DNA of 33,878 bases, from NCBI GenBank assembly GCA_000934665.2, contig JYFJ02004212.1, positions 1 through 33,878 on the forward strand, in the 5' to 3' direction. The first letter of the stretch is position 1. Each line of letters opens with the position of its first letter. A program made the translations under genes and the position numbers. Below are positions 1 to 33,878 of the stretch, one piece after another. Below the pieces are notes generated by a model. That model saw only the letters and a program-made list of their open reading frames with translations. It did no database searches and was not told the DNA's origin. This stretch comes from Catajapyx aquilonaris (lineage: Eukaryota).

Positions 1-324
1 CCAGGTCGAGATGTCAAAGTGTGTCGTCTGTTAATGATCGGTGCGGCCACGCGGGGAACAGGGGAACTGGAGGGCTGCACCGCTCTGGGATGGGCCTCAG
101 CGCGCGGGTAGGCGGGAGCAGCCCTCCAGTTCCCAAGGTCCCGAGGGCGACGCTGGCGGAAGGCCAGCTTCTAGCGCACTATTTGAATTTCCCCACTTTG
201 ACCCCTCGCCCTGGGATTACCGTTCCGCGTAGCGAAAAACGGATTGCACCTTCCGATTCAGGATTTTTTTTGCCCGATTTTTAGAGCCAAACTGGTTTTT
301 TTTTTGAGTGGAGTGTCCCTTTAA
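1..324. mobile_element. Right end of a probable TTAA-targeting (Kolobok-like) non-autonomous DNA element, cut by the window edge
   Basis: GC-rich block ending ...GGAGTGTCCCT|TTAA (321-324); the other end is not in the window. Confidence 0.4.
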
Positions 325-351
325 AATAGGTGCTTTTCAAACCCTGCACGG

Positions 352-515
352 AAAAGTAACTTAGTAACTTTCGTTACAAAGTTACTGTTTAAAGGTAACT
401 AGTTACAAGTACTAGTTACTTGTGCACAAAAGTAACGAAGTTACCGGGAAAAGTACTCAAAAAGTAACTAGTTACTAGTAACGCGTTATTTCTACTCAGT
501 TACTACCCAACTCTG
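352..515. mobile_element. End of a hAT-like MITE with dense AGTAAC/GTTACT subterminal motifs
   Basis: Many AGTAAC/GTTACT motifs in both orientations, ending ...GTTACTACCCAACTCTG (CAG-type terminus); partner end not found. Confidence 0.5.
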
Positions 516-813
516 TATATTATATACACATTCACCAAAATCAGCAATATAAATTTTGGTCAAAATATAACAAATTTTGTTTTCCATATATTTATATCTT
601 CAGTTTGTCCCTTGAGCAAATATTGACCCATGTAATATAACAGCTTTCATAATATATGACAGTTAATAGAATGATTTTATTGAAGAATAAATTAATTGTT
701 AGCAAAATAAATTGTTTTATTTATGTGGGGTTATTTATGGCTGACTTGTGAGTGAAGGGCCTTGGAAGTAGCATATGTTGGACTTGTTCCCATTTGGAAC
801 AGTTCCATGTTAG

Positions 814-1413
814 AAATTGAGGTTATTCCTTGGTGACACAAGCAAACTATGCGACTTTTACAGCGGCACGAGGCTGGATCAACATTATATTTGGGGAGGA
901 ATTGATAAATTCACACCTTCAACAGACATCTTGTCAGTCACAAACATAGTATGTGGAAGATCACTTGGGCGTGAAATCTTGAAGGTTCGCGAAGATGACA
1001 AATCTATACGTGCACCATGGCAAGACAACTTCGGCCCACGGGCAAACGACAGTCTTGTATCAACGTGTCAACAGTGACTACATATGCAGGGACATGACTT
1101 CTATCAGGCAAATAAGGGTGTATACAAATATTTTTGCCCAAGTTACAGGTCCGTAACCATTGCACTGTTATTGTGGGGAACTCTTGACGGCTGTTCAAAA
1201 AAAGGGAAAAAAGGAAAGAAAAGGAGAGAAGGAAATGGAGAAACGCGATCTGGTCGAAAGTCATTTTTAGTCATGAGTCCATGTTTGAGGAATCCATATA
1301 AGTGCTATGGATTCCCTTTTTTTTTCTTACTTAGGGACAAATGCTGCCCACGTGGTGTTAAAATCAGTTCTCATTTTACCCCACTATTGTCGAGAATCCC
1401 AATTTTATACTAG
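814..1413 (+). pseudogene. Possible third, highly degenerate small-HSP-like reading frame interrupted by an in-frame TGA (1075-1077)
   Basis: ORFs 817-1077 and 1084-1413 share a frame; RLDQHY, LKVREDDKS, NFGP, QGH and FCPSY fall in the order of sHSP motifs; similarity is weak and judged by eye. Confidence 0.25.
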
Positions 1414-2788
1414 TTAACAATTTAAGTATACAAGGACAAAAGCAGGTAAATAAGATAAACATTTATTTTAGAGCAAGATGTTTCTAGTAAAGTCAAAAGT
1501 GAACACTAGTTGAGAAATGTAAAGGGACTTTTGCCTTCCCCTATATAGACACATGCAACAAACCCAATACACCTACCTTTCTTGAGGGAAATGAGCTAGT
1601 GTGTCTTGTGGCGTAAAAAGATATCCTATTTATTTGTAAAAATTGCAAGGTCAGAAGGAGGACAAAAAAATCTAGTGTCATTGTTTTAATAACGGCATGG
1701 TAAAGTACTAGTTCATTAAATATAATGCTGGAAATAACGATAAGGTTGGATAATATGGTAAAAATATTTGTTGATCTGTCACTATGTATAGTTTTCCAGA
1801 TGGGCTTTAAAGATACTTTCATTTCGATATTTTTATAAAGGGTTTTGACACCAAACAAAAATAATACAATAAAATTATCACACGACTATTTACTGTCAAA
1901 AAATACAAACACGGTACAGCAGTCTCTCCGTTGTGGGCTAGGTGGAGACATATTGCGTGCACATTACAATGCAAAATGTTAGAACCATAATTCTGGAACA
2001 TAACAAAGATGCCGACAATAATATTTTATAATAGCACTTATCAAATAGGAAGAATACATATGTGTGAATTGATAATATATTTTTGATCGGTCCTCGCGTT
2101 AAACTTGAGCGAACTACCTTTTGTAGCCTTTTCTTTAACTCAAATGGAACAAGCAATATAAACTCACAAATATTATCATTAAGTACCCTACTGACTACAC
2201 ATTAAATTAGGCTAAACAGAGAGTCGATAATGCGAAATACCTACATACAGAATAATGTACCAGATCGAGTAGCCTACCAGATTTTTAGTGTAAAATGTGC
2301 CATTCACAGGGTGTGGACCGAGGTCCACGACACTAAGCTGCGAACTTACGTATGCAAAGGCGATTTTCGTAGATATACTCAATGGTTGATTTTGGCGAAT
2401 TTGGCGATATATTACGGAAAATATCGCATGCGACCCACAAATCGTCAAATATCACTTCAATTAAATGACGGATTATTTCACTCCACACACGCCTTGAAAT
2501 ATCAAAAGGAACATCCCAGAGCAAGCAGTGCACATATTATAGTATCACCCTGTTAATTGGCAGTGCACAATAATTCATTCGGAATGTATCAGTTTGATCA
2601 AGCAATAAACTATTTTACTATACGTCAGTTCTGAATAGCGTACTCTTGAATGTTTGTCACGAACGGCTACAAAAATGATACCTTATCGAGAGAGTTTTTC
2701 CCCCCATTGTAAATTGACGAGCCAAGTCGAAAATATCACTGCTTGCAGACTTGAACACCTTCAGAGGCAGTCTCATTTCACGGCTGGT

Positions 2789-3052
2789 TTACAGCACAGT
2801 ATTTGACTGCGTGTGCTTCGGCTCCATAGCCTTGACGTCCAGGTGGATCTTTGTGTAGTCAGTTTGGGTCTTGCTAGCGCCTTGCTTCCGCATCAGGGAT
2901 ATCCCAAAGCTGCTGTCAGACATGGCCATCATGGATGGAACATCCAGATCGTCTTCGTGCATGAAGAGGCCATACTGGTGGTCGAAAATAAGTAAGGAAC
3001 GTTCCAATGCTTTCCAGTGTGATGCCAACCACGATACTCCGCTTGAGGACAT
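2789..3052 (-). CDS. Truncated small heat-shock-protein-like peptide, paralogue B (~87 aa from ATG 3052); probable upstream exon ending 3322
   Basis: Acceptor TTTTTTGCTGTCCTCCAG|A-ATG at 3054; donor CAG|GTAAAT at 3321; ERSLLIFDHQYGLFMHEDDLDVP...KIHLDVKAMEP aligns with paralogue A and with the l(2)efl-type RLLDQHFG..DDL and LDVQQFxP motifs. Confidence 0.6.
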   Translation of the reverse strand: MSSSGVSWLASHWKALERSLLIFDHQYGLFMHEDDLDVPSMMAMSDSSFGISLMRKQGASKTQTDYTKIHLDVKAMEPKHTQSNTVL

Positions 3053-5014
3053 TCTGGAGGACAGCAAAAAATAGGGTAAGAGTTATATTGACCACATGAC
3101 AAATTGTAGAGTAAATTAAAGTTCATTTTTTATGATGTACTCAGCCTGTATGCAGCATATTAAGGAGTCCTTTTTTGGTATGTCACAAATTAAAGCATGA
3201 TTCGATGCGAACAAAAGTCAATATAGGATTTATATGGTCCCCAAAATGACACTGCAATACCCACTATATAGACTAGTGTTAAAAAGGGGCGGGGGGGGGG
3301 GGGCGAAAGGAAATTATTTACCTGATTGATCTTGAGATGTAGTCGAGTTCTCCGGAGATATTCACAGTAGCCTGCGATGGCTCCAAAGGTGATAAGAATA
3401 GTCTAGCTGGGAAATGCCGGAATACGTATACACAAGTTCTCAGAACTGTGAAAGAGTCACGAATAATTCGAGAGGAGTCTCCCCACCTTTTTAAATGAAA
3501 TTTCGGGCCATGCGTACGTGATGGCCTACGTGCCAAAATACAGGGAGGCATCGGAGGCCCTCCATTGGCAGCGGGAGTTGCCGGTGGGACGGGCTGACTC
3601 AGTTTGTTGTCATTGAAGGCCGACACTTGCGCGGTTGGAGGTCAATATCCTACAACTGGCAGCTACACTTGTGTACCCAGACTGCATCAAAACATGGATA
3701 ACGTTAATGGAACGAGGCCAATGCAGTTTTTTTGTAACGCTACAGTGTACTGTTACATAACCGAAGTAGGTGGGACCTACGACAAATTCCGCGACGAAAG
3801 TGCAATGCAGTGATAAATTTTTTGGATAATGAGTGGCGGAAAATTGTCCTTTTGTATTTATAGGTTAGTTTTTGCATTTTAAAAATTCCTTTGAAGCAGC
3901 ATGGAATTTTATGGGTGACGTAAGTTAATCCGAGGGCACTGATTTCAAAGATCTGCTTGATCTGCTTTCTATTTTTCTCTATCACGTACGGGTTTCATGC
4001 AACTATGATAATGTGATAATACTAATCTTATTGAGGTAATTAGTTTCAAGTTGGAAAAACGAATATTTTGTGTCGCACATCTCATTCATCATTGATATAA
4101 ACTGCGGCATTCAATCTTACACGACAATATTGTATATCTCACAATGGCAGGTTTTTGTTTCTAAAAATCATATGCCTGGACGCCTGCGAGTTATAGTCCG
4201 AAAGAGAAAATTTAGAGATGCATATGAAAAAAAAAAAACCTCAGAAATAAAGAAGGATTATTATGTGCCTGTTGGGCAAAAATATAACTGGACGGAAAGT
4301 TGTAATAATCCCCATTGTTATACTCAGTCATCCATATAAAACACAGCCACGTTGGAGATTTAGTGGTGATAATATGAGTATAGGTTTTTGACATGCTGTG
4401 GATTAGAGGATAATAGGCCTACTACTACTTATTGGTAAAAAGGATTGTGCTCCGTCAGCTGAAACATTTTCATAGCATTGCATTGGCACGAAAGTACAGG
4501 GCCCTTTACCAAAGTCTTACCATTTTTCGCCTTTAAAAGGGTAATTTTGAACGGTTTCTCTGAAAATGAAGAGATATCGTATGGCTGTTTGAATGCATTT
4601 TAAATATTAAAACAAAATTGATAATGCAATGCCACAAAGCATTGTGGTATTATACCGGTACGGGAGGTACGGGCATCGCACACAATGCACTTGTTATCAC
4701 AGTATATTCAAGTTAAGATAAAGCAATCTCTACTAATACCCTTTTTATTTAAATGAAAAAAACGCCAATGATGAACATACGTACACTTCATGAACGTAAA
4801 AAAAAGTAAACCAAGATTACTTCTGTATATAATGCCACTGTGAAAATGTCCCCACCGAAATCAGTCAGACACATGGCCGTAAAGCTGATGCAAGTTGCAC
4901 GGGCCACCCTATTCCGACATCCATTGACCTTCTGAGGCGATGATAATCCGATTTAAAAGTTATATATCCGTAGCATGTTTTTTCCTCTTCATAATTATGG
5001 TTGTGTGACCATGA

Positions 5015-5782
5015 TCACTGCTTGGGTGGTTCCACTTGTTGCACGTCCAAGGGGACCTTCAACTGCTCCTTACCGGTGCACTTGAAACGGGAGCAGAGGC
5101 CAGACTTTCTGGCCACACTCGTTCCGCACAGCAAACTAGAATCGGCTGATATCAAGGATGGAATATCAAGGTCGTCTTCGTGGGTAAACTTGCGATAATG
5201 ATGATCAAATATTAATAAAGGTCGTTCCCAGGCGCTTGTCATCTTGATCAGTGACAACCAGTATGTCTGGAATTTCCTGAAAATAAGCAATAACGTCAGT
5301 TTGAAAAATTACTTGTATTTCAACCAGATTGCGTCAGTCACTTAATGGTCATTGTAGTTCGTATTTTTTAAATTTCTAGGTAATAATTTTGCAGAGTATT
5401 CGCAAACTAATTTTTCCAAAATTATTTTTGGCAACCAGTAAAATAACGGCCAAATCCAGGATGATTATTGAAATGTGACTAATACGTTATTTAATCAAAA
5501 ATTATTATTTTTTCAGTCGCATTATAAATGTCATTTATTTTGGGGCCAGCCCAAGCTTACTTCGAGTTTGGGGTATATGATTGTATGAATTTCAAAATAT
5601 TTTGTCATGTAACCGGTTATATTTGGGTCATCGAATTATTATACCCACCAGGCACTCTCCCCTACATTGTGTACTACAGTACTGTACTGGTGTGTTATAG
5701 AAAATATTATGCAGCAGGCTACTACTCACTGGCTCTCTTTCTTGTCGGCGCCTTCACCTTCCTTCATAATGTGCATGGCCAT
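5015..5782 (-). CDS. Truncated small heat-shock-protein-like peptide, paralogue A (104 aa); exons 5782-5730 and 5276-5015
   Basis: ATG 5782, donor CA|GTGAGT, acceptor TTTCAG|G, phases match (phase 2); MAMHIMKEGEGADKKESQKFQTYW...WERPLLIFDHHY...EDDLDIP...KEQLKVPLDVQQVEPPKQ*; upstream TATA box and downstream AATAAA (4749-4744). Confidence 0.65.
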
Positions 5783-5960
5783 GATAGTCAAGTTGTGATA
5801 GTTAGCTTGGCAATCACAAATATGCTTGCTGCACCTTGCTCGATGGCTTCGTTGAGAAAAGCACTCGCCGAATTAATAAATCCGCAGTGAATCGACCAAC
5901 CACTCTGGGACTCTTCAGGTATCTCTCGAGAACACACAGATTCATCTACCTTCGTTCTGC

Positions 5961-5967
5961 ATTTATA
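5961..5967 (-). promoter_or_regulatory. TATA box of paralogue A
   Basis: TATAAAT on the minus strand about 180 nt upstream of ATG 5782. Confidence 0.5.
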
Positions 5968-6334
5968 CTAGAGCTCCCTCCGCCCCCTCCCCTTTTCTTA
6001 CTCATTGCCTAAAAGTGCCCGGCATAACGATATTCACGGACGGTATTGCATCAGAAAAGCGGCGGAAGCGAAGATAATACTGATGCTGCAGATTAGATAA
6101 TTGGGAGACATTGCTAACACAAATACGTTCTGTACAAAACATATCACTTAAATTGTAAGATGACTATCGTACATAGAACTCTTCATGAACGATCAAATTC
6201 AAGGTCAATGAGGTGTATCTCGATAAAACTCTGCATGACGCCGGCCAACACTGTTGTTGCATCTTGCTTCAAGCCATGAAGTACGCGGATTACATAATGG
6301 ATTGTGAGGAAACCTACACATTATTGATGTAGTG

Positions 6335-6655
6335 ATTTTTTATTTATGTATTCATTTATTTTATTTATTCATTAATTCAATTAATTCGTTTATTTTATTT
6401 ATTCATTCATTCATTCAATTCATTCATTTATTTTATTTATTCATTCATTCAATTAATTAATCCGATTAATTAATTAATTCAATTAATTAATCAATTAATT
6501 AATCAATTAATTAAATTCATTTATTTATTTTATTAATTCGTTTATTTTAATTCATTCATTTTATTAATCCATTCATTTTATTAATTCATTTTATTTCAAT
6601 TCATTCATTCATTCATTTATTTTATTTTTTGCTTATTTAATTAAGTTATATTATT
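6335..6655. repeat. AT-rich compound microsatellite (ATTC/ATTT/ATTA)n
   Basis: Degenerate tetranucleotide runs visible directly. Confidence 0.9.
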
Positions 6656-8888
6656 TACAAGTGGGTCATTCCTCATGAAACGGGGCATTTTGGTGAAAAG
6701 TGAAGGTTAAAAGCTTCTCTCTTTTTTTGCTTTTTAAACTCGCATTTTAATCAATATTTCGGTGTGTCTTTGGAATACCTTCATGAAGAATAGATGAATG
6801 CTTACTTCAGACCCATTCTCTTAACACATTTTTATCCAAGGTCAAAAATGTATATGGTCAGTTAAATATGCTTTGTCCCATCCGTTTACCTAGATTAATT
6901 ATCACTGTATTTATATATATATATATTTATTTAAAACTTCGTATGTGAATAGTGAAAGGAGAGCTTCCAGGTTGTATTATAGAGCACTGCATTTCAGATT
7001 GCAAGCATTTTACTAAAATGGCTGAGATGGCCGAAGGAGGCTATCCAAACACTAGGCGGTGTTCTTTTTCGTTCTGACTGGAGTTAGCGATACGTGTTTT
7101 GAACTTCATTACACAAAGCGTCGCGTTACAGAAAAAAAGAAAATTGAGTTATACCCGCTAGTGCCCATGGTGATTGCATTGATTAGTTATTTCTTTGCAA
7201 AAATACTGACGCTTATGTAACTTCAGAAACGGTGACACCGGAACTGCAACTTTTGTTCAGTATTACAGATTGAGAATATTTTATCAGAAATTTCAAAGTC
7301 CAAACGTTTTTTGAGTCCTGACGCGTCATAAATGGGAACATTCCATGTGATTGTGACATGACTAGTGTCAGTACCTGTATCTACACGTCTAAAAATTACT
7401 CTAAATATTAATAAAAACTTATCCGAGATGTATATGAATATCATGTTGAGACATTTATCCCATCTCAAACTTTACAGTAGCAAAAATATACGAAAATAAT
7501 TCAAATATTCGAAATCCGAACCATTGCCTGTCACAAGAATTTCGGGTAAACGATTCTCAACCTGAACAAATTTCTGCTTCCATTCAAAATGGGTTAGTGT
7601 TAATATCTTGAAAATTCATTGCAATTCACGGCCGCACGGCCCAGGCGATCTCCTTACCAAAAGATGTAATGTGTGGCGCTGCATTTCGGAGTATACAAAA
7701 TATGTCTTGTCGTCTACCTTGTAACCGTGGTCCCTCGACATTTCTCAACCATTTCAGAATCATCTCGGGCCAACGATTAATTTGGCACCGGAAGTCCCAC
7801 TAGTAAGAGACTCCTTTTGTTAAAGAGTAATCTATAGTGTATTTCACCCTCCTACTCCCAACTGTAAAGGCCTCATGAATTGCAGTGGAATATAAATAAC
7901 ACCCAATGGCATGGTATAATTATAAATAATAGAGAAAAATATAGTGGAAAAATGCAACTGATAATGTTAGACCTACCTTTGTTTGGGAAGACGTAGCTTC
8001 TAAAGCTATGTCAAGGTAAGCATACGCGCTGTAACAATGCAACATACATGAAGTGTGTCTCTATTATGCAATTTCAAAGAGCAGCACTTCATTTGTAATG
8101 CTGTCTGTCATTTCATGGACTTTTTCATTTCCGATGTTTGTCTATATTTTCTGTTGTTATACAGTCTTACTTGGTGACAAGCTACAAATGATGTGATGAC
8201 TGCAAGAAACGAATTTTCTGTCAGGAAAATTATAACATATATAGAAAAAAAAAGGTTATTAACATTTCATTGGAGGGGATCGAATTGCCTGTGCATGTGC
8301 GTGCAATAATAGCTGTTTTTTTTCTTTCTGGGAACCCGACACAAAGTGCAGTCTCGCACGTGAGAAAGGAAATGTCCCGTGATTTGCGATGACAAGAGCG
8401 GACCTTGAACGCCCTTCCTGGAGAAAGTCTCAACCTCCCTCAAAGTAAACGTGGATGACAACAAAGACCCCGTACACACGCGTTACACACTACTAACCTA
8501 TTTGCCAGTTTGTGACTAAGTGTTCCACTAATTTGGGGCAATGTCAGGCGTCGAAAAATGGGTTTTCAAGATGCTATAATAATTCTCAAGTACACAATCT
8601 ATCTGATGTCACTGCATCTTTCCGACTCGATGACGTTCTTACTATTACAGCATGAGATCTGAGATGAGTATATATAGTTGTTTACACAAAGAAGCAAATC
8701 TTAACGACGGAAGTACTTGCGTCATTGTGCCATTAGGTGAAGAGGCAGGTGGACTCCTCCCTCCTTCAAGAACAAGGCCCATCCGCTTTTTCTTCTCTGT
8801 GTTGGCTTTTCCAGCACCCCCATCCCCAATCCTGTACCCCCCCCNCCCCCCCCCCTGCGCACGACCAAAAAGCGCGTATGTCACGGAG

Positions 8889-8897: not shown

Positions 8898-8940
8898 AGG
8901 TAAACGCTGAGACCCACAAGCACATTGAAACGTCGCCATA

Positions 8941-10083
8941 ATGTGGCAGACAAGGTATCTTTTAACCCTTTGGACCGTACTGCTGGTGGCCAGAAGTGAA
9001 GTCACGGAAGGGCCCTCGGTGGTCGAAGTTGGGAAGGTGTCCGGAGGCCCTCGACCTGTCATAGGCGGAGTTTCTCAGCAAGGAGAGGTCAATAACCGAT
9101 TCTTCCTTCCGGGAATCTTCGACTCCTGTTCTACATGCTCTTATTACAAGCAGAACCAAGCCCGACGCTGTTGCTACCAAGGATACCAAAGATGCTGCTC
9201 CTTCGCCCAACAGGGAAATTATTACCCAAATAATAACAACTGGTACCCGAACAATAATGGCAACTGGTACCCAAACAATGGCTATCCCAACAATAATTAT
9301 CCCAACAACTATCCAACCGGTAAGTTGATTTATTTTATATTTTGAACATTGGTTCCCACTTGGAGTCGCTAATAGTTACAATCTGTTACAATATATAATA
9401 TTACTTTTCCTAATGGCCAATTAGTGTTTTTATAGCACCCATGCTTACAGTTATAGTATGATATATTTTAACCAACTTGACTTTATCTAGAAAATATCAA
9501 ACATTCTCCACTAGCAAAAGAGTCCATCCCCCCCCCCAAAAATTTCACTCCTGGATCTCCTGTACAATATACTATGGAAGAGATGGAGTGGGTATGGGGC
9601 GGTAAAGCTGTGGTTGGTGTGCTGGCGCTTCTTTTATAGTCCCAGCCAATGAGGTTGAAAACAGCTGTATCGTAGAGAAGCAATCATTACAGGATATGAA
9701 TACTTTTTGTAGGGTTTGGAAAGCCAGGGTATTGTCCAAACTATTATGGACGTGGTGGAGGAAGAGGAGTGATCGGGAACAAGAGGATTAAAAGAAAAGC
9801 ACAAGAGATCTCAAGTAGGCCGCAAGAGTCGGACAGACGGCAGTTTGGGTACGACTACAACAGTGGTAGATATCCAGGAGGAGGAGGAGGAGGAGGAGGA
9901 GGAGGAACCAACGTGTACTACCAGTGCAGTCAGGATTACGATTGTCCCGGTAGTCTCAAGTGTTGTTCCAGTGGTTTCTACAGACAGTGTACCTATCCAG
10001 GCTCGCCATACTATGGTTCGGGTGGTAGTGGTTTTGGGGGATATGGAGGATACGGTGGCTATGGTGGCCAAAATTATGGTTAA
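8941..10083 (+). CDS. Secreted crustin/waprin-like protein (249 aa): signal peptide, 6-Cys region, Asn/Tyr/Pro repeats, split WAP-like domain, Gly/Tyr tail; exons 8941-9319 and 9713-10083
   Basis: Signal peptide MWQTRYLLTLWTVLLVARS; donor G|GTAAGT 9320 and acceptor TTTTGTAG|G 9712 in phase 1 give GFGKPGYCP; C-terminal CSQDYDCPGSLKCC...C-T-Y-P is WAP-like; AATAAA at 10186. Confidence 0.85.
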
Positions 10084-13307: not shown

Positions 13308-14936
13308 CCCAGTTAGCACAATGATATATTTCCCATATCTCTGCTAGACCCGAGGCTAGACCTCTGAAAGTGCTGAATATGTCGATCAGATGTCTAGCAG
13401 ACAAGCATACGTCACAGGTTTAGATGTCTACATGATATCTATTGTATGTATGACATATTGGGTAGACAAATACCAGACCATATCTAGATATCTACTAGAT
13501 GTTATACCCAGACATCCAGTATGGCTTGGATTCTGTCGTTGTACTTACGGGGCTTCGTAAGTCATACCTGCTATAACAGAACGACTTGCGAAGCGAGGCT
13601 CTGTAAACACCATGAGAATGCAAGCCATACTGGATGTCTGGGTATAACATCTAGTAGAGGTTGGTTGCTTGCGTCGGCACTCCGTATAGCTAATAGTCTG
13701 TTCCCTAAGGGCAAAAATCAGGCCTAACTTTGCATTTTGTGATAAGAAGGTGCCACTTGGCACATATGTTCCCTAGGCCTATAGGAGCAATTCCAGTGTT
13801 GCAGGCAACTGATCGGCCCCTGAGGTCACGAGTTATGCGGTGTTGCCAACATGGCCGGGGATGACCTGAGCGTTTTTAACGTTGCATTTTGTGATAAGAA
13901 GGTACCGCTTGGCACATATGTTCCCTAGGTCTGTAGGAGTCGGTTGAGAGATGGCGGCACTTGATCGGCTCCTTAAGTCAGGAGTTATGCGGTGTTGCCA
14001 ACCTGGTCCTGGACCTAAGAGTATTGAACCATTTTTAACTTTGCATTTTGGGATAAGAAGGTGCCACTTGGTACATATGTTCCTTAGGCCTATAGGAGCA
14101 ATTTCAGAGGAGGCAACTGATCGGCCCATTAGGTCACGAGTTATGCGGTGTTGCCAACCTGATCAGGGAACTAAGCGTTTTAACTCGGCACTTTGTGATA
14201 AGAAGGTGCCACTTGGCAGACATGTTCCCTAGGTCTATAGGATCCATTTGAGAGATGGCAGCACATGATCAGCTCCTTAGGTGAGGAGTTATGCGGTATT
14301 GCCAACATGGTCCGGGACCTAAGCATAACCGCATAACTCGTGACCTAAGGGGCCGATCAGGTGCCACCAACTCTCAAATTGATCCTCTAGGCCTGGGGAA
14401 CATGCTTGCCAAAATCCCAAAATGCAAAGATAAAAATGGTTCAAAACACTTAGGTCCAGGACCAGGTTGGCAACACTGCATAACTCCTGACCTAAGGAGC
14501 CGATCAAGTGCCGCCATCTCTCAAACGACTCCTACAGACCTAGGGAACATGTGTGCCAAGCGGCACCTTCTTATCACAAAGTGCAAGGTTAAAACGCTTA
14601 GGGCCCGGACTATAAGCCTCATTCCAAAACCAAGACTGGGCCAACACACTATAGCTGCTACGCCACACTATACTATGCAGATATGGCCGGCTCACAGCGC
14701 CGACAGGCGGGCGGTTGGGGTGAAGTTGTGGGGGTGGAGGTCAGGAGGTGGGGGCGGACAGGCGCAGTAACTACGGAATCTCTAGGCGATGTCTTGGCTC
14801 GCGTCATTTATCTTTGAGCCTTTGTTCCAGATTTTCCTACCTATATACGATGTCTAGTAGATGTGCATGTCATCCGATTTTTGGTAGATGGACAGATATC
14901 TAGATGATATTACTTAGAGGTGGCGTGCTACCTGGG
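13308..14936. mobile_element. EnSpm/CMC-like MITE (CCCAG...CTGGG termini, possible 2-bp AT TSD)
   Basis: TIR CCCAGTTAGCAC / GTGCTACCTGGG; repeated AGATGTCTAG/TAGATATCTA subterminal motifs on both arms. Confidence 0.65.
13694..14612. mobile_element. Foldback element built from ~150-160-bp satellite units (about 4 forward, about 2 inverted)
   Basis: TTGCATTTTGTGATAAGAAGGTGCCACTTGG recurs near 13731, 13882, 14041 and 14188, then inverted from ~14330; ends TAGTCTGTTCCCTAAG / CTTAGGGCCCGGACTA. Confidence 0.75.
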
Positions 14937-23557: not shown

Positions 23558-26500
23558 TCACATATATAATGTTTTCTTCATCCATTCTTGTAGTGCTATT
23601 GGTTGCGCATTTCTTTTGTTGTCTTCAGAACCCAACATTTCTGAAAAATGGCAATCATTAATTAAGTAAACAGTCCATAACATTTGAATAATTATGAATT
23701 TGCATGCTGGTATTATACAGTATGTTTCTTTACCCTTAATTGTCTTCAGCTTAATACAGCACATGATGAAGTCATCGTATGCGACTCTTCCTTCTTTGTC
23801 TCCATATCTCATCATGAGGGTGCTTAGAACATCATTAGATACATAAAACCCTGATGATTTTAATGCATCGCGCAGGTCATATGGATTTATGCGTCCAACA
23901 CAACCTCTGTCGTAGTACTTGAAAACTTTCTGAAATTTTTCCACAGCTTGTCACATGTTAGGAATGGGATTAATTTGACAACTTACTGTCCACATCCTGA
24001 GGTTGACACAAAGTTCCATAAACTCTTGTAATCCAAGTTTGCCAGACATGTCTACATCAAGCATAGTAATCATGGAACGGCAACTGTTCTTGTCAAAGCC
24101 TCCAAATGGAAATTCTGGAAGGAAACCTCCGTATGTATGAGGGAAGGAGAGGGGCTACAAAGACAAAAGACCATTAGGTATTGAACAGGGAGCAGGAGAT
24201 GCACAGTCATTGAGGAGTTATTGGAAAGTGGAAGCTGATAAGGGGGTGTCCCGAACAAACTCTTACTAGTAATAAGAGAATCCCTCCAAGAACTGCAGAT
24301 GACGTAAGTATTGGTACATGAGAAAATCCTGCAGAAATCAATGACGTGGAGACTATATGTGTCAGGTTTGGGTCACAATACCAACTATGCAACAATATCA
24401 ACCTCATGCATTAAATGAGGGGTGTGGTGGAAAAAGGTGATAGCCCCCATTTTTGTCATTTTGACCTAAACACCTAGCAACTATGTAAAAGACATGACAA
24501 ACAGACTGGAATAGTTCAAGTTCATGTATCATGCATGAGACGGCAACATGGACTAGATTAAAACCAGCATTTTCTATGATTTGTGAAGAGAGTGCAAACT
24601 TAAATTCGCTCTCCTGAAAAATTACACTTTTGTGGTTATAACCTTTTTCCACCACACCCTTCAAATATGAATTCAATAATTTAATATGCAATAATTCTGG
24701 TTGTATAGCATTACTTAAGCCTGCTTGCATGCTTTATGGTCCATAATGACTATTAATTTGGGTAAAAATATTTGAGACAACAAATAACAATTCTGATAAT
24801 TATCAACCACTTGCTTTGGATTTGTTATCAGGCATTACCAGGCAACCAACCTGCATTTGATCAAGTTTTATATCGAAGCAATAAGGCAGTTGACTAAGTA
24901 TGGATTGATTTTGGCAATTTAAGGTTTTGAATATTTTTTACCAACAATAAATAACAAGGAACAACAGCTATAGTTCTTCGTCAATCTGACAGAAGGACGA
25001 CTTCAACATTTTCCAGATTTTACAGGAGGGTCAAAAGAAACCTGCAAACCGCTATACAAATACATAGGATGACCTTTTTATTTGCCACTATAATTCTGAA
25101 GCCACTTGTCCCACGTGTTCCTCATTTTGTCAGAATGTGACCCAACACTTGATGGTGCTGGCAAAGGCCATAACTCTATTTTAGCAAAAATGTCAAATCC
25201 GTCCTTTTGTCAGATGAATGACTAGTTGTGGATTAACTATTGACCAGACAAGCCACCTTAGGCTGGGGTGTATAATGGCTGGTAAACTCCAAACAGTGGT
25301 TGAGCCTTGTTATCAATTGTTTAAAAATTGCTACCAACATTGAATAACATGAATCAACCACTTGTTCTGGATTTACTCTCAAACACGTACTCCAGCCTTA
25401 GAAAGTGAATAATCTGCTTGAGCCTATTTTTACGAATTACCTGTTTGATACTCACAGTCAGCAATTTATTAAAAGTTGGATTGGAAAATCTCATGTGATT
25501 GGACGGAGAAATAATTATGTAATGGATTTCAGCCACTCAATGTCATTATCATTGTTAGATCCCAATGTTACAAAGGACTGGATTGTGCATGCACAACAGA
25601 AGCAAGCAATATTCATCATGCAATACAAGTTAGAGTTGTCCATTTACATAGTGTTTTGTTCTTCATAAGTGTGATTACACATCAATGTATGCGCTACTGA
25701 TTACATGAATGGTTAAGACTTTAGGCATTATCAAGTTAAATAAAAGAAATCACTTACCAATATGTAGCACTGAAATAAAACAAATAGTCAGTCAATCAAC
25801 AGATCAAAATTGAGGTTTCATATGATTTATATAAGTTATTACGAAACATACTATTATCAGCAGCATAATTCAGAATGTGAAGCAAATCTTCCCAATCAAT
25901 TTCTCTGTGTGGACCAGCTGTTTTCAGGAAAACATTTTGAATGTGTACTTCATCTTCCAACTCTTCTGAACTTGGCTGAATATGAAATAACATTATATGC
26001 AGGCGCAGATTATTGTTAAATATACAGTAAAATATAATACTACAGTACTAATGTGCCTTGTTTGTCCAGGTTGAGTCATGACCTCAAACTCATACCCACC
26101 ACCACGTAGTGCCACTAATTCTCGCACGACACTGACAGTGGCAGCTAGGATTGTGGTGAGAAGGGGTAGTGGTACAGTTCTGGTCATATATCGAGGCAAC
26201 TGCCAGCGACATTTTCCGAAGCGGCAGAAGAAGGAATCGAAGATAAGCATACTTCAAGCATGGGCGAGCAAGAATCCTTCTTCTGCCGCTTTGGAAAATG
26301 TCGCTGGCAGTTGCCTCGATATATGACCAGAACTGTACTATGTGGATGGGTTGGTGGTTCTGGCTGACTTGAGATGATTACTCACCCTGGGCAAACAAAC
26401 ACACTGATTATTATCAGTTTTGTCAACATTTGGCGCAGGGTTCACTAGTAAGCATATGAATGACTCAACTGATCTTTTTCCCTCATGTGCAACGCTGAAT

Positions 26501-29500
26501 ATAGAAATTGTGTGTTTATGCATGAAGCTGAAAGTCAGAGTCTTCTTATAACCATTTTTTGGCAAAATTGACACAACTTTACCCAGTAGGCAGTAGACGT
26601 TGCATATACTGTACCTCCCTATTCACAATATTCTGCTTAAGCATGCGACGGGACAGGCCAGATTTTTATATTCATCACAGCAAAAAGCCGGGGAGGGGGA
26701 AGGGGGTCATAGTTGTGCATTATAGTAGGCTTATACATATTTAAAAAATACCTCAGAAATCATGATGTCAATTGCTATATTTTCCAAGTTTTGCCTGGAA
26801 AAAAATTGAGCGTTATAATAGTGGAAACTTGAAATAAGCAAATTGTAGTTACGTCAAGTCCGCTACTTTCTCGGTGCAAATTCGGAAGATAAACTTTCCT
26901 TCTTGATTGGGCTTCTCTGTGGCAGCAATAAGGCAATAAGAGCCAGGCAATAAATCGTATCGACCACTAACTTCTCGATAGTTGCTAAAGCCGGATTTAA
27001 ATAGCAAATCATTCATCTGGACATAATCAAAATCCAAAGGATCAGGTACACTTTCCGGCTTGTCTAACTGGAAAAGTGTTCAGAATAAGTTGCTATATAA
27101 TCAATATGAATTACATGGGTGTTATAATCAGGGTTGTGAACCAAACCGAACCCTTGCTCCGTGAACCTGATAACAGCGGAGCCACTCCGGAGCAGTAGAG
27201 CCAGGTCCGGAGCGAGCATCAGAGCTTGGTTCGGGTTCGACCCGGGTCAGGGGGAGAGTGGAGCCAAGGTCGGAGACGGTCCGGAGTTTGGTTGGGTGCT
27301 TGCCAGCTTGCTCCGGAGTTTGGTTCGGGCCAATGTCTCCGGAGCTGAACCAGGTTCCGGAGGGAGGTTCGGAGCGGTTCAGAGCTTGGTTAGGTCCAAC
27401 ATACCAACGCAACGGGGGGAAAGGCAGAAAAACTGCTGAATTTACTCCAGCGTGTGCGTCATGTTTTCATGGTGCCAGAATGACATTTCCAATCACCTGC
27501 GATACAGGGTGTACCGCAAATGCCACATTTTTATGTCATATGCATTTTTGTACGTTACAATGTCACACACATTTTTTGGATGTCACATTTTCATGACATA
27601 CACATTGTTGGTATGTCACAATATGTCATACGCATTTGTTGTATGTGACATTTTCATGTCATATGTATTTGTTGTATGTGACATTTTGTCATACGCATTT
27701 TTTGTATGTTATACAATATGATATTGTAACATACAAAAAATGCGTATGACATAAATATGTGGCATACAACAAATGCGTATGACATGAAAATGTGACATTT
27801 GTGGTAGCGTACACCCTGTATCGCAGGGGATTGGAATGTCATTCTGGCACCATGAAAACATGATGCATGCGCTGGAGTAAATCCAGCGATTTTTCTGCCT
27901 TTCCCCCCGTTGCGTTGGTATGTTGGACCTAACCAAGCTCTGAACCGCTCCAAACCTCCCTCCGGAACTGGGTTCAGCTCAGGAGACGTTGGCCCGAACC
28001 AAACGCCGGACCAAGCTGGCAAGCAGCGCAAGCTCCCAACCAAACTCCGGACCCGCTCTGACCTTGGCTCCACTATCCCCCCGAACTGGCTTGAACTCGA
28101 ACCAAGCTCCGACGCTCACTCCGGACCCGGCTCTACTACTCCAGAGTGGCTCCGCTGTTATCAGGTTCACGGAGCAAGGGTTCGGTTCGGTTCACAACCC
28201 TGGTTATAATTATCCAAGATGAACTCCCTAGCACCAAAGAATCATCTCCTGTAGATGCATTATTTCAAGTTTTAGGATGGAATTCTAATTTACACTGCAA
28301 TTTTAATAGGCTGAGTCTATCAGTGAGGCGATGGAAGTGTTGTAAGGCTGTATCAGTGGTATAAGAAATGGTATAACTCACTGAGAATGCAATTATCTCG
28401 GTAACGAGGCCCTTCTATACGTTCATTGATTCTTGAATGCCTCGAGTTCACTCTTGAAATTTGCTCGAATAATTGTTATAAACATCATGTATAGCCCAAC
28501 TCTTGAACTGTACATTACCTTGTACACATAATAGCCGATCGAAAGCCCTCCAGGTTTGTAGTGTCTTGACCGCTTTTGCATGAGAGCTATGATGGCACAG
28601 CACTTTCCATCATTGTCCTGTTCAACCTCCTTAATAGTCAGCAAAAATCGTGGATTGTGCTTGAAAGTGTCTGTCAATGTCCAATTATCCATTGATCAAA
28701 ATACCATTTTTTGTTGTGAGTTAAAAGGAACTAATGCTAAGTTTTGGTAAACAACTGACAGTCTACTACAGTCATGTTGTAAGTTATGTTCAACTTACAT
28801 TAGAGGTATATTTGGTGTGTGTGGGGGGGGGGGGATACACCAATGTTCATAAATCTATAAAATCTAGAAATTCTGCTACATTGTTGGATGGACCTTTCAG
28901 AATATAACAAGATTGCAATATAAGTAACTATTTGTGATGTTTTTGTACAAATTTTCCCCCACTAGTTTAATACTGCGGTCTGTCAACATTGTCCTTAAAA
29001 GTCTGGATTTGGATGCCACAGTGAGTTAATCGCTTGAGCCCGAAAAGGCAGAATTTTCATTATGATTTATTTTCAGGACTAGGACAAGAACTTTGGATTT
29101 AATTCTTTGGTCTTTCAATGTCCACTGCAGGACAGGTGCCCCCCTGCTTTAACTACTATTCTGATCCTAAAAGGAGCTATTTTGGCAATATTTGTATCTT
29201 ATTTTCCAAAACGGAAGCAAAAAAAACTATTGGAACTTTTCCCTTATTGTAATTCCGACCTCCTAATTGCTGCTTATATGGTGTGTAAGAACAAGATTAA
29301 CGCCAATGTTTCATGGCAAGGTAACATATTAGCTATTTCAGTTATGTGCAAAATAAACTACCGGTACATCTGGGATCTGGGTGTTCGATTTCAAAAGGGT
29401 GTCCATATTACTCACGTGCATGAATTATGCTTCCACCAGCAGTTGATCCTTTGACCCAAGAGCCTTCACGAAACTCCAACGCCCACTTCTTTTGAAAAGG

Positions 29501-31349
29501 GTCCTCGGTGTTTTCTAGTCTCAAATGGCATATCTCCACACTCTTGAAGTGTTTTAGAAAGTCTTGGTAAGATATCCAAAACTCACCGTCATCTTTATCT
29601 TCCCAACCAAAGGCATCCTTTTCTTTTTGAGGCATATGTGTCCACTCCGCAGAACTACGGGAAAGAAAGAAAAAAACCATAAGCATTATTATATAATTCA
29701 CACATGATACGTAGAAGAGAGTTTGGAATAACCTGGAACTCTCTGGAATACTGCAGTTTATTGGTCGCATGCACAGTAGGCTGCAGCTCATTGTTTTTTA
29801 AATGCACAGTGTCTTTTCAAGCTCCCCTTTCCATTGTATTATGTAGGCTTTCTGCAGTTTAGCCTGTTCACTTACGAGTCACTCCAAGCTCCTTTCCATT
29901 CTTGACAACCCCATGGATTCCTCAGGCGCAACAGAGGTACATTGTCGGATGGACCTGTCCTCAGGTGCTTGATTCCAGTAATGCTGTATACGTGTCCATA
30001 TACTAATCCTTCTGGAGACTTCTTCGTAATGTTATCAGGTGAGGGCTATGGATGCAAAGAAAAGTTATAACTATAGTTTTATGAGAATGTTTTGTAATGG
30101 TAAAAACGCAATTATTTTTTGCTAGCTTACCGGAGTGGTACAGCCCATTAAAGATGATCTTTCATATGCTTTCAAAAGAACTGTATAGAGTTTAGGAGAG
30201 GCGTTGTTCAGGTGGTACACTTCACACACTCCCCCGCTAAAATCTTCCATGGCTTCGGAGCAATTTCCGCCTTTTAAAGCTGCATATGCTCCACCAATAC
30301 ATCTAACAAGAAATGATATCAACAAAGGAGGAGGTCTGCGGGGTTAGTAAAGCACGAAAAATGATTTTTGAATACAAAGGACATTGTGATTGACTATTAG
30401 GTTTTTAACGGTAAGTTTGCATAACTTCGGGAAGAAATGCTCAAATTACGTGAAATTAATTTGAACGTTAAAATAATTATGTTATTAATTGTTACGAAGT
30501 AGCATTGCAAAAAGGGTAAGGTAATACTTTGCATAAGCCTTCTCCAGCAAGGAACTCCAGAATTCGTTCGGTTGCGAAGATTTCATTGATTGAATCACAC
30601 CATTCTTTGTGGGTAAGCGATCGTCAATAATCACCTCTTTCCATCGACCATACTGCCAAAACCTTTAAAAAAAAGCTCGTAGTAATGAAACTCTGTAACC
30701 TATAACCAAGAGTGCTATAACGTGTTCTTAACGTATCATTAACATGTCCTAACCTAAAGTGAAAGATCCCCGCGTATTTTTCTGTAAAGCCCTGATCTTC
30801 GGGAATGACCTGTTTCAACAGCTCCTTGTTCATAGTCAATGATGAAATTGCGGAGAGCATCCAGCAGTCACCTAAACCCACATAAAATAAAGAGAATGTT
30901 GTTTACATATTAATAATAATTAGCTACGTAATAAACTCATAATACTGTCTCAGCACCGATTTGTCCTTGTCGAACATCAAACCGTGACGCTCCATCCACA
31001 AACATATGGGGATCCTTGATGATTTCCTAGAATGTTTATTAAATTACTAAATACCTTTTTTTAGAAGAGAAAAAACACTGGGACACTATTGTTTCTTACA
31101 AAGGGACGCTTCCACTCCACAGGACCTGTAATGTACGGCTGCAATGATGATATATCCATTTCAAAGTTAGGGTCTTCGAAGAGCTTCCCGTTTTGTAGAC
31201 AATTCTGCTTCATTTGTTCAAATGACTGCGCAAATATTGCATAAATGGTTTGAGAATTAGGTCTGGATGAAAACCTTTAACAGCGAATAGTTAATTCTTA
31301 CCGGTTTTGCACCTTCCCTCCACCTGCCGGATACCTGATTGTTTGCCAT
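23558..31349 (-). CDS. Classical calpain (CysPc-C2L-PEF; calpain A/B-like), ~672-710 aa. Exons 31349-31302, 31225-31100, 31026-30957, 30871-30754, 30662-30528, 30302-30131, 30045-29876, 29654-29416, 28670-28519, 27067-26853, 26794-26752, 25975-25852, [25769-25758], [24328-24267], 24154(or 24114)-23987, 23929-23734, 23640-23558
   Basis: All junctions are GT-AG and phase-consistent; LFEDPNF, WKRP, catalytic [38 protein letters not shown], and EF-hand motifs [10 protein letters not shown] and YDDFIMC. Confidence 0.95.
26175..26335. mobile_element. 161-bp hairpin MITE in a calpain intron, TA-flanked
   Basis: ~60-bp near-perfect arms CAGTTCTGGTCATATATCGAGGCAACTGCCAGCGACATTTTCC. Confidence 0.85.
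27129..28202. mobile_element. 1074-bp hAT-type foldback MITE in a calpain intron with an intact 8-bp TSD
   Basis: GTTATAAT|CAGGGTTGTGAACC...GGTTCACAACCCTG|GTTATAAT; ~400-bp inverted arms around a TGTCATA/TGTGACA-rich centre. Confidence 0.92.
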
Positions 31350-32684: not shown

Positions 32685-33878
32685 ATGTCCTTCCAGTATA
32701 ACGTAACTTTTAAAAATGGACAGAAAATGCCCTTGATTGGCTACGGCACGTGGTCGGTAAGTAAAAACGCTCTTGTCCAAAAATGTAGTGTTATACGTAA
32801 AACTCTAATATTTATTGCGAATGATTATTTTCATACAAGCCAACAGAAGGATGTCCTATTGAAGGATGCGTAGATCAGGCTCTTCAGGCCGGTTATAGAC
32901 ACATCGACACTGCATATGTCTATCGCAATGAAGATGGGATCGGAACTGCTATGAAAAAATGGTTCGACTCGGGGAAACTAAAGAGAGAGGACGTCTTTGT
33001 AACTACTAAGGTAGTCTCGTTTTGACCTTTAATCAACGAGGATTATTATGTTTTGTGAATTTAATGTGCTTATACATTGTACTGCACAGCTCCCTATGAT
33101 TGGTATGCGACCAGACTTAGTCCCCCACTTCCTAAAGCTGTCTCTGAAAAAACTGGAGCTGGATTACGTCGACCTGTATCTGGTACACGCACCTGTAGGA
33201 TTAAAATACGAAAGCGACACAGATTATTTTCCTGTGGACGCAGAGGGTACGATCAAACTCGACGTGGACACAGACCTGGAGAAAGTATGGCAGGTAAGGT
33301 ACAACACAAACTTGGGGAAATTACTTGAGGAGGTGAGTTTTAAAATTAACGTCCCAAATACACGATTTTACCAATGATGACAAAAATGACCCCATCAACT
33401 TTTTTGATTTGTGATAAACCTGTAGCGATAATATTGCACACGATGAGATGCTCAGACACATTTTCACTTATCGTGCATTTATCCCAAGTGGGCCGCATTC
33501 AGATAAGGCACTGGGGCTGGATTTGCCTTTTAACAAATGTTGAACCCTACGGAGAAAATAATATGCAACAAACATATTCTATTTTGCCAGAAACATGTTA
33601 AAGAGCGTGGTGTATAAATCGCGCATAGGAGGACCGTAGAGTGGTTAACAGGTGGTCAGTATGTAGGATAAATGTTTCTTTCATTCATACACTCTCGTTC
33701 ATTTTCCGGATATTAAAAATGGATAACGTTTAACACTTTAACACAGCCCTGTACTGATTTAAAAAATATAATAAGTGTTTAGATCAAATAAAGTGGATAA
33801 TAGACGAGAATTACGTCAGATTAATAATGCAACAACTGAATATTTAAATATGTTTTACAGGCTATGGAAGCGCAGGTG
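32685..33878 (+). CDS. Aldo-keto reductase (AKR1-like), 5' part; exons 32685-32756, 32840-33010, 33090-33293 and 33861-end
   Basis: NGQKMPLIGYGTW, GYRHIDTAYVYRNE, KREDVFVTTKLP, SLKKLELDYVDLYLVHAP, WQAMEAQV; catalytic D/Y/K/H present; phase-0 GT-AG introns. Confidence 0.95.

Follow-up and report, generated by a model that had tools for sequence, protein, structure and literature searches.

The 33,878-nucleotide contig JYFJ02004212.1 of Catajapyx aquilonaris (assembly GCA_000934665.2), analysed here over its whole length (the window), raises the question of whether a genome can carry the N-terminal region of a small heat-shock protein (sHSP) as a gene of its own. This region controls oligomer assembly and client binding in sHSPs, and its disorder, together with its constant attachment to its own domain, makes it difficult to study. 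Two minus-strand open reading frames (ORFs) of the window, each of 97 codons from stop to stop, lie at 5015-5308 (gene A) and 2789-3082 (gene B), with the stops counted in these coordinates. Judged by the alpha-crystallin domain, the family's defining feature, A and B are not sHSPs but sHSP derivatives. We describe below the evidence for this origin, the selection to which the pair appears to have been exposed, and what such products might do.

A and B are clearly related to each other. Their products share 34 of 70 residues (BLASTP, E 4e-18) with all gaps in-frame, and the common blocks are ER.LLIFDH.Y..F.HEDDLD.PS, DSS, RK.G and LDV...EP. An earlier note on this DNA had described two minus-strand paralogues with such blocks and with stops 3-9 residues beyond LDVxxxEP, and both descriptions are borne out: A ends 3 residues past LDVQQVEP and B ends 9 residues past LDVKAMEP. 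No third copy was found in the window by tblastn, which leaves A and B as the sole copies there. At the DNA level the likeness is confined to one stretch, the conserved core, where 83 nt are 72% identical; taken as a 102-nt segment, the core has a z score of 10.5 that was reached by none of 300 shuffles. In the other segments compared, A resembles B no more than at the level of noise: this holds for the final 120 nt of the intron, the 42 nt that lead up to the core, the coding sequence of the C-terminal part, the 300 nt of 3′ flank and the 150 nt of promoter.

Each of the two is readable as a complete, compact two-exon gene, as predicted from splice, promoter and polyadenylation signals (Table 1). 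The spliced coding sequence of gene A has a single terminal stop and a predicted product of 104 residues (11.9 kDa), and gene B has a predicted product of 87 residues (9.8 kDa). Canonical splice acceptors just 5′ of the shared block, proposed in the earlier note, are present in both genes; since they fall at the same place in the protein alignment, the intron was inherited. The TATA box and AATAAA signal that had been reported for gene A were recovered as well. About 350 nt upstream of this TATA box lies an AT-rich compound microsatellite (6321-6657) with units of 4-34 nt.

Table 1. Predicted features of gene A and gene B (a slash marks an exon boundary)
Feature	Position	Strand	Basis or detail
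Gene A: TATAAA box	5962..5967	-	read from sequence
Gene A: exon 1, coding part	5730..5782	-	ATG 5782-5780, 17 codons + 2 nt; donor CCA/GTGAGT; phase-2 intron
Gene A: intron, 453 nt, GT..AG	5277..5729	-	donor and acceptor contexts; acceptor ttttcAG/G
Gene A: exon 2, coding part	5015..5276	-	86 codons + stop TGA 5017-5015; sHSP-like N-terminal region and LDVQQVEP strand
Gene A: conserved core (..AWERPLLIFDHHYRKFTHEDDLDIPS..DSS)	5132..5233	-	DNA-level likeness to B; pN 0.20, pS 0.85
Gene A: AATAAA	4744..4749	-	266 nt past stop
Gene B: TATA-like TTTAAAAA	3488..3495	-	consensus match only
Gene B: presumed non-coding exon 1	3322..3460	-	no ATG; donor CAG/GTAAAT (3322/3321); 5′ end approximate, start inferred from TATA-like box
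Gene B: intron, 268 nt, GT..AG	3054..3321	-	acceptor cctccAG/A, position homologous to gene A acceptor
Gene B: exon 2, coding part	2789..3053	-	ATG 3052-3050, 87 codons, stop TAA 2791-2789
Gene B: conserved core (..ALERSLLIFDHQYGLFMHEDDLDVPS..DSS)	2906..3010	-	DNA-level likeness to A
Gene B: AGTAAA variant poly(A) hexamer	2614..2619	-	about 170 nt past stop

Comparison with sHSPs allowed us to ask where the pair comes from. Comparator sequences were obtained by scanning metagenome contigs with a degenerate DNA pattern for GKHEEK-x-DEHG, which we take to be an animal sHSP signature, and this returned 27 loci. Fourteen of them, whose ORF begins with an ATG located 75 or more residues upstream of the motif, were kept for an alignment (A2), and the other 13 (L001, L004, L005, L008, L010, L014-L019, L024 and L027) have ORFs without the N-terminal part and were left out. 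All 14 retained comparators match Pfam HSP20, and 6 of the 14 match Pfam Crystallin N-terminal (PF00525). From their motifs we infer that they are arthropod-type sHSPs, and they may be of the narrower l(2)efl type.

The alignment of A and B matched A2 in hhalign with a probability of 94.2 (E 1.2e-7) over 68 aligned columns, which place query columns 13-80 on template columns 15-92; the match begins in the N-terminal conserved block and extends to LDVQQFxPEE. The score of 47.1 fell to 17.9 when the query was reversed, and it was reached in 0/200 and 0/648 column shuffles (maxima 24.4 and 26.9; 848 in all). The same relation was seen with hidden Markov models (HMMs) in both directions. Among 1977 six-frame pieces of the window (at least 10 residues), the A2 model ranked B first (E 5.5e-4) and A second (E 2.3e-3), both on profile positions 14-92, with the next piece at E 0.58; the A+B model, run over 2278 pieces of the 27 loci, returned only sHSP ORFs down to E 5, the best being L003 (3.8e-6), L023 (8.6e-5) and L025 (3.3e-4). 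In Smith-Waterman comparison with the 14 sHSPs, B (69) and A (63) ranked first and second of 676 pieces of at least 30 residues, with scores reached by 0/500 shuffles. In a joint alignment of A and B with 10 comparators (the 14 less L007, L009 and L013, which have no motif block, and L021, a near-copy of L012), three blocks follow one another in a common order: R-P-x-x-I-F-D-Q-x-F-G..DDL, R-Q-x-S-G-x-S and F-x-V-x-L-D-V-Q-Q-F-x-P. On this profile-profile and reciprocal evidence, A and B derive from an sHSP and correspond to its N-terminal region and first alpha-crystallin strand, in agreement with the earlier note.

What follows this strand in sHSPs is missing here. The complete domain is a beta-sandwich of about 80-100 residues, and neither A nor B holds one; both also end before the region of the C-terminal extension with its I/V-x-I/V anchoring motif, which is absent. 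HSP20 had no match in the 80 minus-strand ORFs of at least 25 residues at 1-6163 (all 82 minus A and B, which were scanned separately). Nor was there one among 148 further ORFs, which take in the plus strand from 1 to 6200 and either strand up to 9600, or among the 140 ORFs of 58 residues or more in the remainder of the window. Beyond profile position 92, the sHSP model found nothing in the window except a weak plus-strand piece at 8497-8652. In all three frames of the 300 nt past each stop, similarity to alpha-crystallin parts was no better than that of shuffles. One candidate, the read-through after the stop of A (..EEEK...GYIT..), was rejected as an alpha-crystallin relic, with a score of 33 against 26.9 +/- 4.4 for shuffles, 20/200 of which reached it. 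The proposal that most of the domain is lacking, with no further domain after A or B in the window, is thus upheld.

The divergence of A from B is informative on how the pair has been maintained. The earlier note had suggested comparing nonsynonymous with synonymous divergence between the paralogues, and over the 33 codons of the core this gives pN 0.20 and pS 0.85, the latter being saturated. Codon positions 1 and 2 of the core are identical at 53/66 sites versus 13/33 at position 3 (Fisher p 8.8e-5), which indicates purifying selection on the core after an old duplication, as read from the codon pattern. For the C-terminal 33 codons, which hold the LDV strand, the corresponding counts are 34/66 versus 12/33 (p 0.20). 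The equal divergence of codon positions expected of a pseudogene is therefore rejected for the core and not for the C-terminal half, and both frames are open. Neutral simulation with substitutions only left an 86-codon frame open with probabilities of 0.056, 0.013 and 0.009 at 0.25, 0.5 and 0.75 changes per site; the probability that both ORFs remain open together ranges from 0.003 to 0.00008. The idea of a maintained family thus stands in part: the core carries a purifying codon-position signature, the C-terminal half lacks demonstrable constraint, and on codon-position counts constraint is established for the N-terminal motif block only.

We propose that A and B are an old tandem pair of two-exon genes that arose from an arthropod-type sHSP gene. 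In sHSP order, they keep the N-terminal block (R-P/S-L-L-I-F-D-H-x-Y .. DDL), the R-x-x-G-x-S block and the LDV...P strand; each ends after this strand, without the remainder of the alpha-crystallin domain or a C-terminal tail. Since the end points of the two genes differ by only a few codons and the intron position is common to both, the truncation most likely occurred once, before the duplication, in which case the core constraint would have acted on the truncated form. The core protein was kept while synonymous sites, introns and flanks diverged to noise, which argues, as far as the core goes, that the truncated product is translated and useful or was so for a long time. In the most likely mode of action, products of 10-12 kDa, largely disordered, would dock in trans onto full-length sHSPs and thereby change the size of oligomers or the composition of hetero-oligomers in a microProtein-like way.

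Studies of vertebrate sHSPs offer a possible basis for such docking. Isolated peptides 25-37 of human HSPB1 (the conserved motif) and 74-91 (the boundary before beta3) are described as binding the dimer-interface groove of the alpha-crystallin domain, and G34R as weakening groove binding (PMC6791718). The conserved N-terminal motif is also described as governing hetero-oligomerisation (PMC7352286). A free N-terminal region that holds both HSPB1-type segments could thus dock onto full-length sHSPs and shift their assembly. The two paralogues may differ in affinity, by analogy with HSPB1, as B has Gly and A has Arg at the counterpart of the G34R glycine, or A may be drifting. By the same analogy, a regulatory microProtein role is plausible. 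Taken as a whole, the reading of A and B as truncated sHSP derivatives that act on full-length sHSPs has, in our estimation, an even chance of being correct. A bolder version, which we consider doubtful, is that A and B would be the first members of a class of gene-encoded, N-terminal-region-only sHSP derivatives, expressed and occupying the groove in trans to set oligomer size, subunit exchange or activation, as a natural microProtein layer with paralogues tuned differently. If the reading is true, a free and selected N-terminal region would show that cells can regulate sHSP assemblies by a separate polypeptide, and the pair would lend itself directly to the study of which contacts in the groove are important.

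Several observations weigh against this reading. The first concerns the motif itself. In human sHSPs the conserved N-terminal motif is given as (S/G)RL(F/L)D(Q/D)xFG, with the Arg conserved (PMC8213154), and the corresponding segments are R-P-L-L-I-F-D-H-H-Y-R in A and R-S-L-L-I-F-D-H-Q-Y-G in B. The RLFDQxFG motif named in the earlier note is therefore absent in its strict form: the Arg stands six rather than three residues before the Asp, the position three before the Asp is Leu in both, and the Gly is present only in B, with the Arg of A falling at the very residue whose G34R counterpart weakens HSPB1 binding. F-D is kept in both, His and Tyr stand in place of the Gln and the Phe, and L003, a true sHSP, shows the same shift of the Arg. 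Additionally, the C-terminal half is without demonstrable constraint, canonical AATAAA is absent near gene B, and the inference of a single truncation would be weaker if the ancestral gene had an intron at the end point. The negative results on the domain hold within the window, which extends only 2.8 kb downstream of B. AlphaFold2 gave no confident fold for A from a two-row alignment (mean predicted local distance difference test score 45.9, with no residue reaching 70); by this model the product is likely to be disordered, as sHSP N-terminal regions are.

The database searches also count on this side. Neither protein had a Pfam match at E<=10, including HSP20 (PF00011) and Crystallin N-terminal (PF00525), so that the profile comparison proposed in the earlier note came out negative; PF00525 is a weak criterion, as only 6 of the 14 true sHSP comparators match it. 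Nothing was found in PDB at E<=10, either by phmmer of A and B or with the two-sequence profile. A phmmer search of B against 1.84e9 representative proteins gave no credible relative, its sole match (P0003) being a 2023-residue K/V/G/E-rich repeat protein hit in 7 stretches, which we judged spurious. In a word-indexed library of 5.8e9 proteins, no protein of near or greater length matched at E<=10; a conserved calpain exon from elsewhere in the window (Pfam E 9e-12), used as a control, was matchless there too, and the blank in this library therefore carries little weight for this taxon. The ESM Atlas had no usable match for A or B.

A scan for heat-shock elements is neutral in this respect. 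Sixteen matches to GAANNTTCNNGAA with at most one mismatch were found in the window versus 12.1 expected; apart from a one-mismatch site 412 nt upstream of the ATG of A, the 400 nt around either promoter are free of them. The scan does not discriminate, as only 4 of the 14 true sHSP genes have a site in the upstream DNA available.

There are other possible explanations for the pair. One is that A and B are non-functional relics of a decayed sHSP cluster, in which case the constraint on the core would predate the loss of the domain. Arthropod sHSP clusters are described as duplicating and decaying (PMC8336396), which makes this a serious rival, and the C-terminal half without demonstrable constraint, the Arg at the motif Gly in A, the missing canonical AATAAA of B and a possible further alpha-crystallin relic on the opposite strand (8563-8652) all speak for it. 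We nevertheless find it unlikely. The near-identical end points make one truncation before the duplication the simpler history, and all divergence between A and B would then be later than the truncation. That divergence is saturated at synonymous sites and flanks, but replacement sites in the core have changed little. Both genes retain their start codon, splice acceptor and donor, and open frame, and neutral retention of both ORFs is improbable in the simulation. Were the pair a relic after all, it would document the decay of an sHSP cluster.

The plus-strand piece just mentioned deserves its own description. It spans 8497-8652 and mainly 8563-8652, where an ORF piece ending in FSRCY...DDVLTITA and a stop resembles the last alpha-crystallin strands. 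Twelve of its 30 residues are identical to L006, and its HMM E value of 0.58 is the third best of the 1977 pieces. The Smith-Waterman score of 50 was reached by 0/500 shuffles but ties with three longer pieces; taken alone, the piece is not significant. It may be what is left of a third sHSP gene in the opposite orientation, and such a relic would fit a decayed cluster.

A different possibility is that the A and B exons are 5′ exons, maybe alternative and with promoters of their own, of full-length sHSPs whose domain exons lie beyond the window start or are too diverged to be recognised. A stop right after the exon end is common where a donor is read through, weak GT candidates are present at both ends (gct/GTAAAC in B, gca/GTGATC in A), the window offers just 2.8 kb downstream of B, and introns of several kb are described for some insect sHSP genes (PMC2745388). 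The ORF ends have no good splice donor, however: with caa/GTGGAA and gca/GTGATC in A and act/GTGCTG and gct/GTAAAC in B, no candidate combines a G at +5 with a purine at +3, whereas the modelled introns use the strong donors GTGAGT and GTAAAT. Nor do A and B have a donor in common at a homologous position. Neither the 1.5 kb that separate the two genes nor the 2.8 kb beyond B contain an alpha-crystallin-like piece, and an AATAAA already follows 266 nt past the stop of A.

The exon structure of the relatives bears on the same question. The LDV strand and GKHEEK are contiguous in one ORF in 27/27 relatives, and the introns precede the strand: 11 of the 27 ORFs start at profile positions 74-83, just before it, and for L001 and L027 an upstream exon was found that covers profile positions 16-85. 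A and B extend beyond that intron point and stop within a stretch that is uninterrupted exon in each of the relatives, which argues, indirectly, against an unseen next exon. Overall, we regard it as rather improbable that A and B are 5′ exons of complete genes. The ORF starts in L001 (1263-1991, minus strand), L027 (680-1462, minus strand) and 9 more of the 27 loci also suggest that sHSP genes repeatedly carry an intron where the N-terminal region meets the domain. A 39-nt exon-like piece at 4549-4587 on the minus strand, with a strong acceptor (tcattttcag/) and a donor (/gtaagac), was also considered as a continuation of A and rejected, because it is not sHSP-like and no usable donor of A leads to an alpha-crystallin-like frame; it lies downstream of the AATAAA of A and may be a chance occurrence or an exon of another gene.

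That A and B are a lineage-specific small gene pair resembling sHSP N-terminal regions by chance is very improbable, in spite of the blanks in Pfam (E<=10), PDB and, the spurious repeat protein aside, the library of 1.84e9 proteins, since three motif blocks stand in sHSP order with similar spacing, the hhalign score of 47 compares with 26.9 for the best of 848 shuffles, and the reciprocal HMM searches pick exactly A and B in one direction and exactly sHSP ORFs in the other.

The rest of the window holds genes and repeats. A multi-exon calpain gene with Peptidase_C2, Calpain_III and EF-hand exons occupies 23561-30902 on the minus strand, and the start of an aldo-keto reductase gene lies at 32825-33374 on the plus strand. 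Two adjoining plus-strand ORFs look like secreted proteins: the one at 8929-9342 has a hydrophobic, signal-like start and Asn/Tyr/Pro-rich repeats (NNNWYPNN..), and the one at 9700-10080 is Gly-rich with a match to the WAP four-disulfide core (Pfam E 1.8e-8). Inside a calpain intron, long ORF-like pieces with near-identical translations stand in opposite orientation (27131-27466 and 27856-28209), and related ones occur at 13836-14767; all of these are likely to represent a dispersed repeat. At 391-504, palindromic GTAACTAGTTAC-type repeats form a cluster that resembles a foldback element. Rfam had no match in the window.

In order to place A and B among known systems, we compared them with sHSPs, with sHSP pseudogenes, with microProteins and with synthetic peptides. 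Within the library and terms used, no natural sHSP derivative devoid of the alpha-crystallin domain came up in a full-text literature search; HSP11.0 of Cotesia, considered as a precedent for a truncated sHSP, is a cpn10 protein instead. Like the 14 full-length arthropod-type sHSP ORFs, of which L003, L023 and L025 are closest, A and B have the blocks RP..IFDQxFG..DDL, RQxSGxS and FxVxLDVQQFxP in the same order; A has R-P-L-x-I-F-D in common with L003, and the Arg three before the Asp is absent in L003 as well. Unlike sHSPs, A and B are without the remaining ~80 alpha-crystallin residues, the C-terminal tail and the YRPW segment, have conserved motifs of their own (HEDDLD.PS and DSS), and carry an intron before the N-terminal region. 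They resemble the sHSP pseudogenes described in arthropod clusters (PMC8336396) in their tandem setting, the loss of the defining domain and the want of detectable relatives, and differ from these in having intact frames, splice sites and start codons and a core with a strong codon-position signature of constraint on the protein.

A second comparison is with microProteins, which are described as small proteins that keep one interaction region of a larger family and engage related proteins (PMC9638782, bioRxiv 10.1101/061655). A and B are likewise below 20 kDa (11.9 and 9.8 kDa), come from an oligomerising family and have homology restricted to an N-terminal, subunit-contact region. Unlike microProteins, they keep a mostly disordered region and one strand rather than a folded dimerisation domain, and the microProtein cases described mostly concern transcription factors. 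A third comparison is with the synthetic N-terminal peptides of human HSPB1 (PMC6791718), which, like A and B, contain the equivalent segments (the motif and the boundary or beta2-beta3 region) free of their own domain. Those peptides are laboratory products of a vertebrate protein, whereas in A and B the free region would be gene-encoded, with A carrying the counterpart of G34R.

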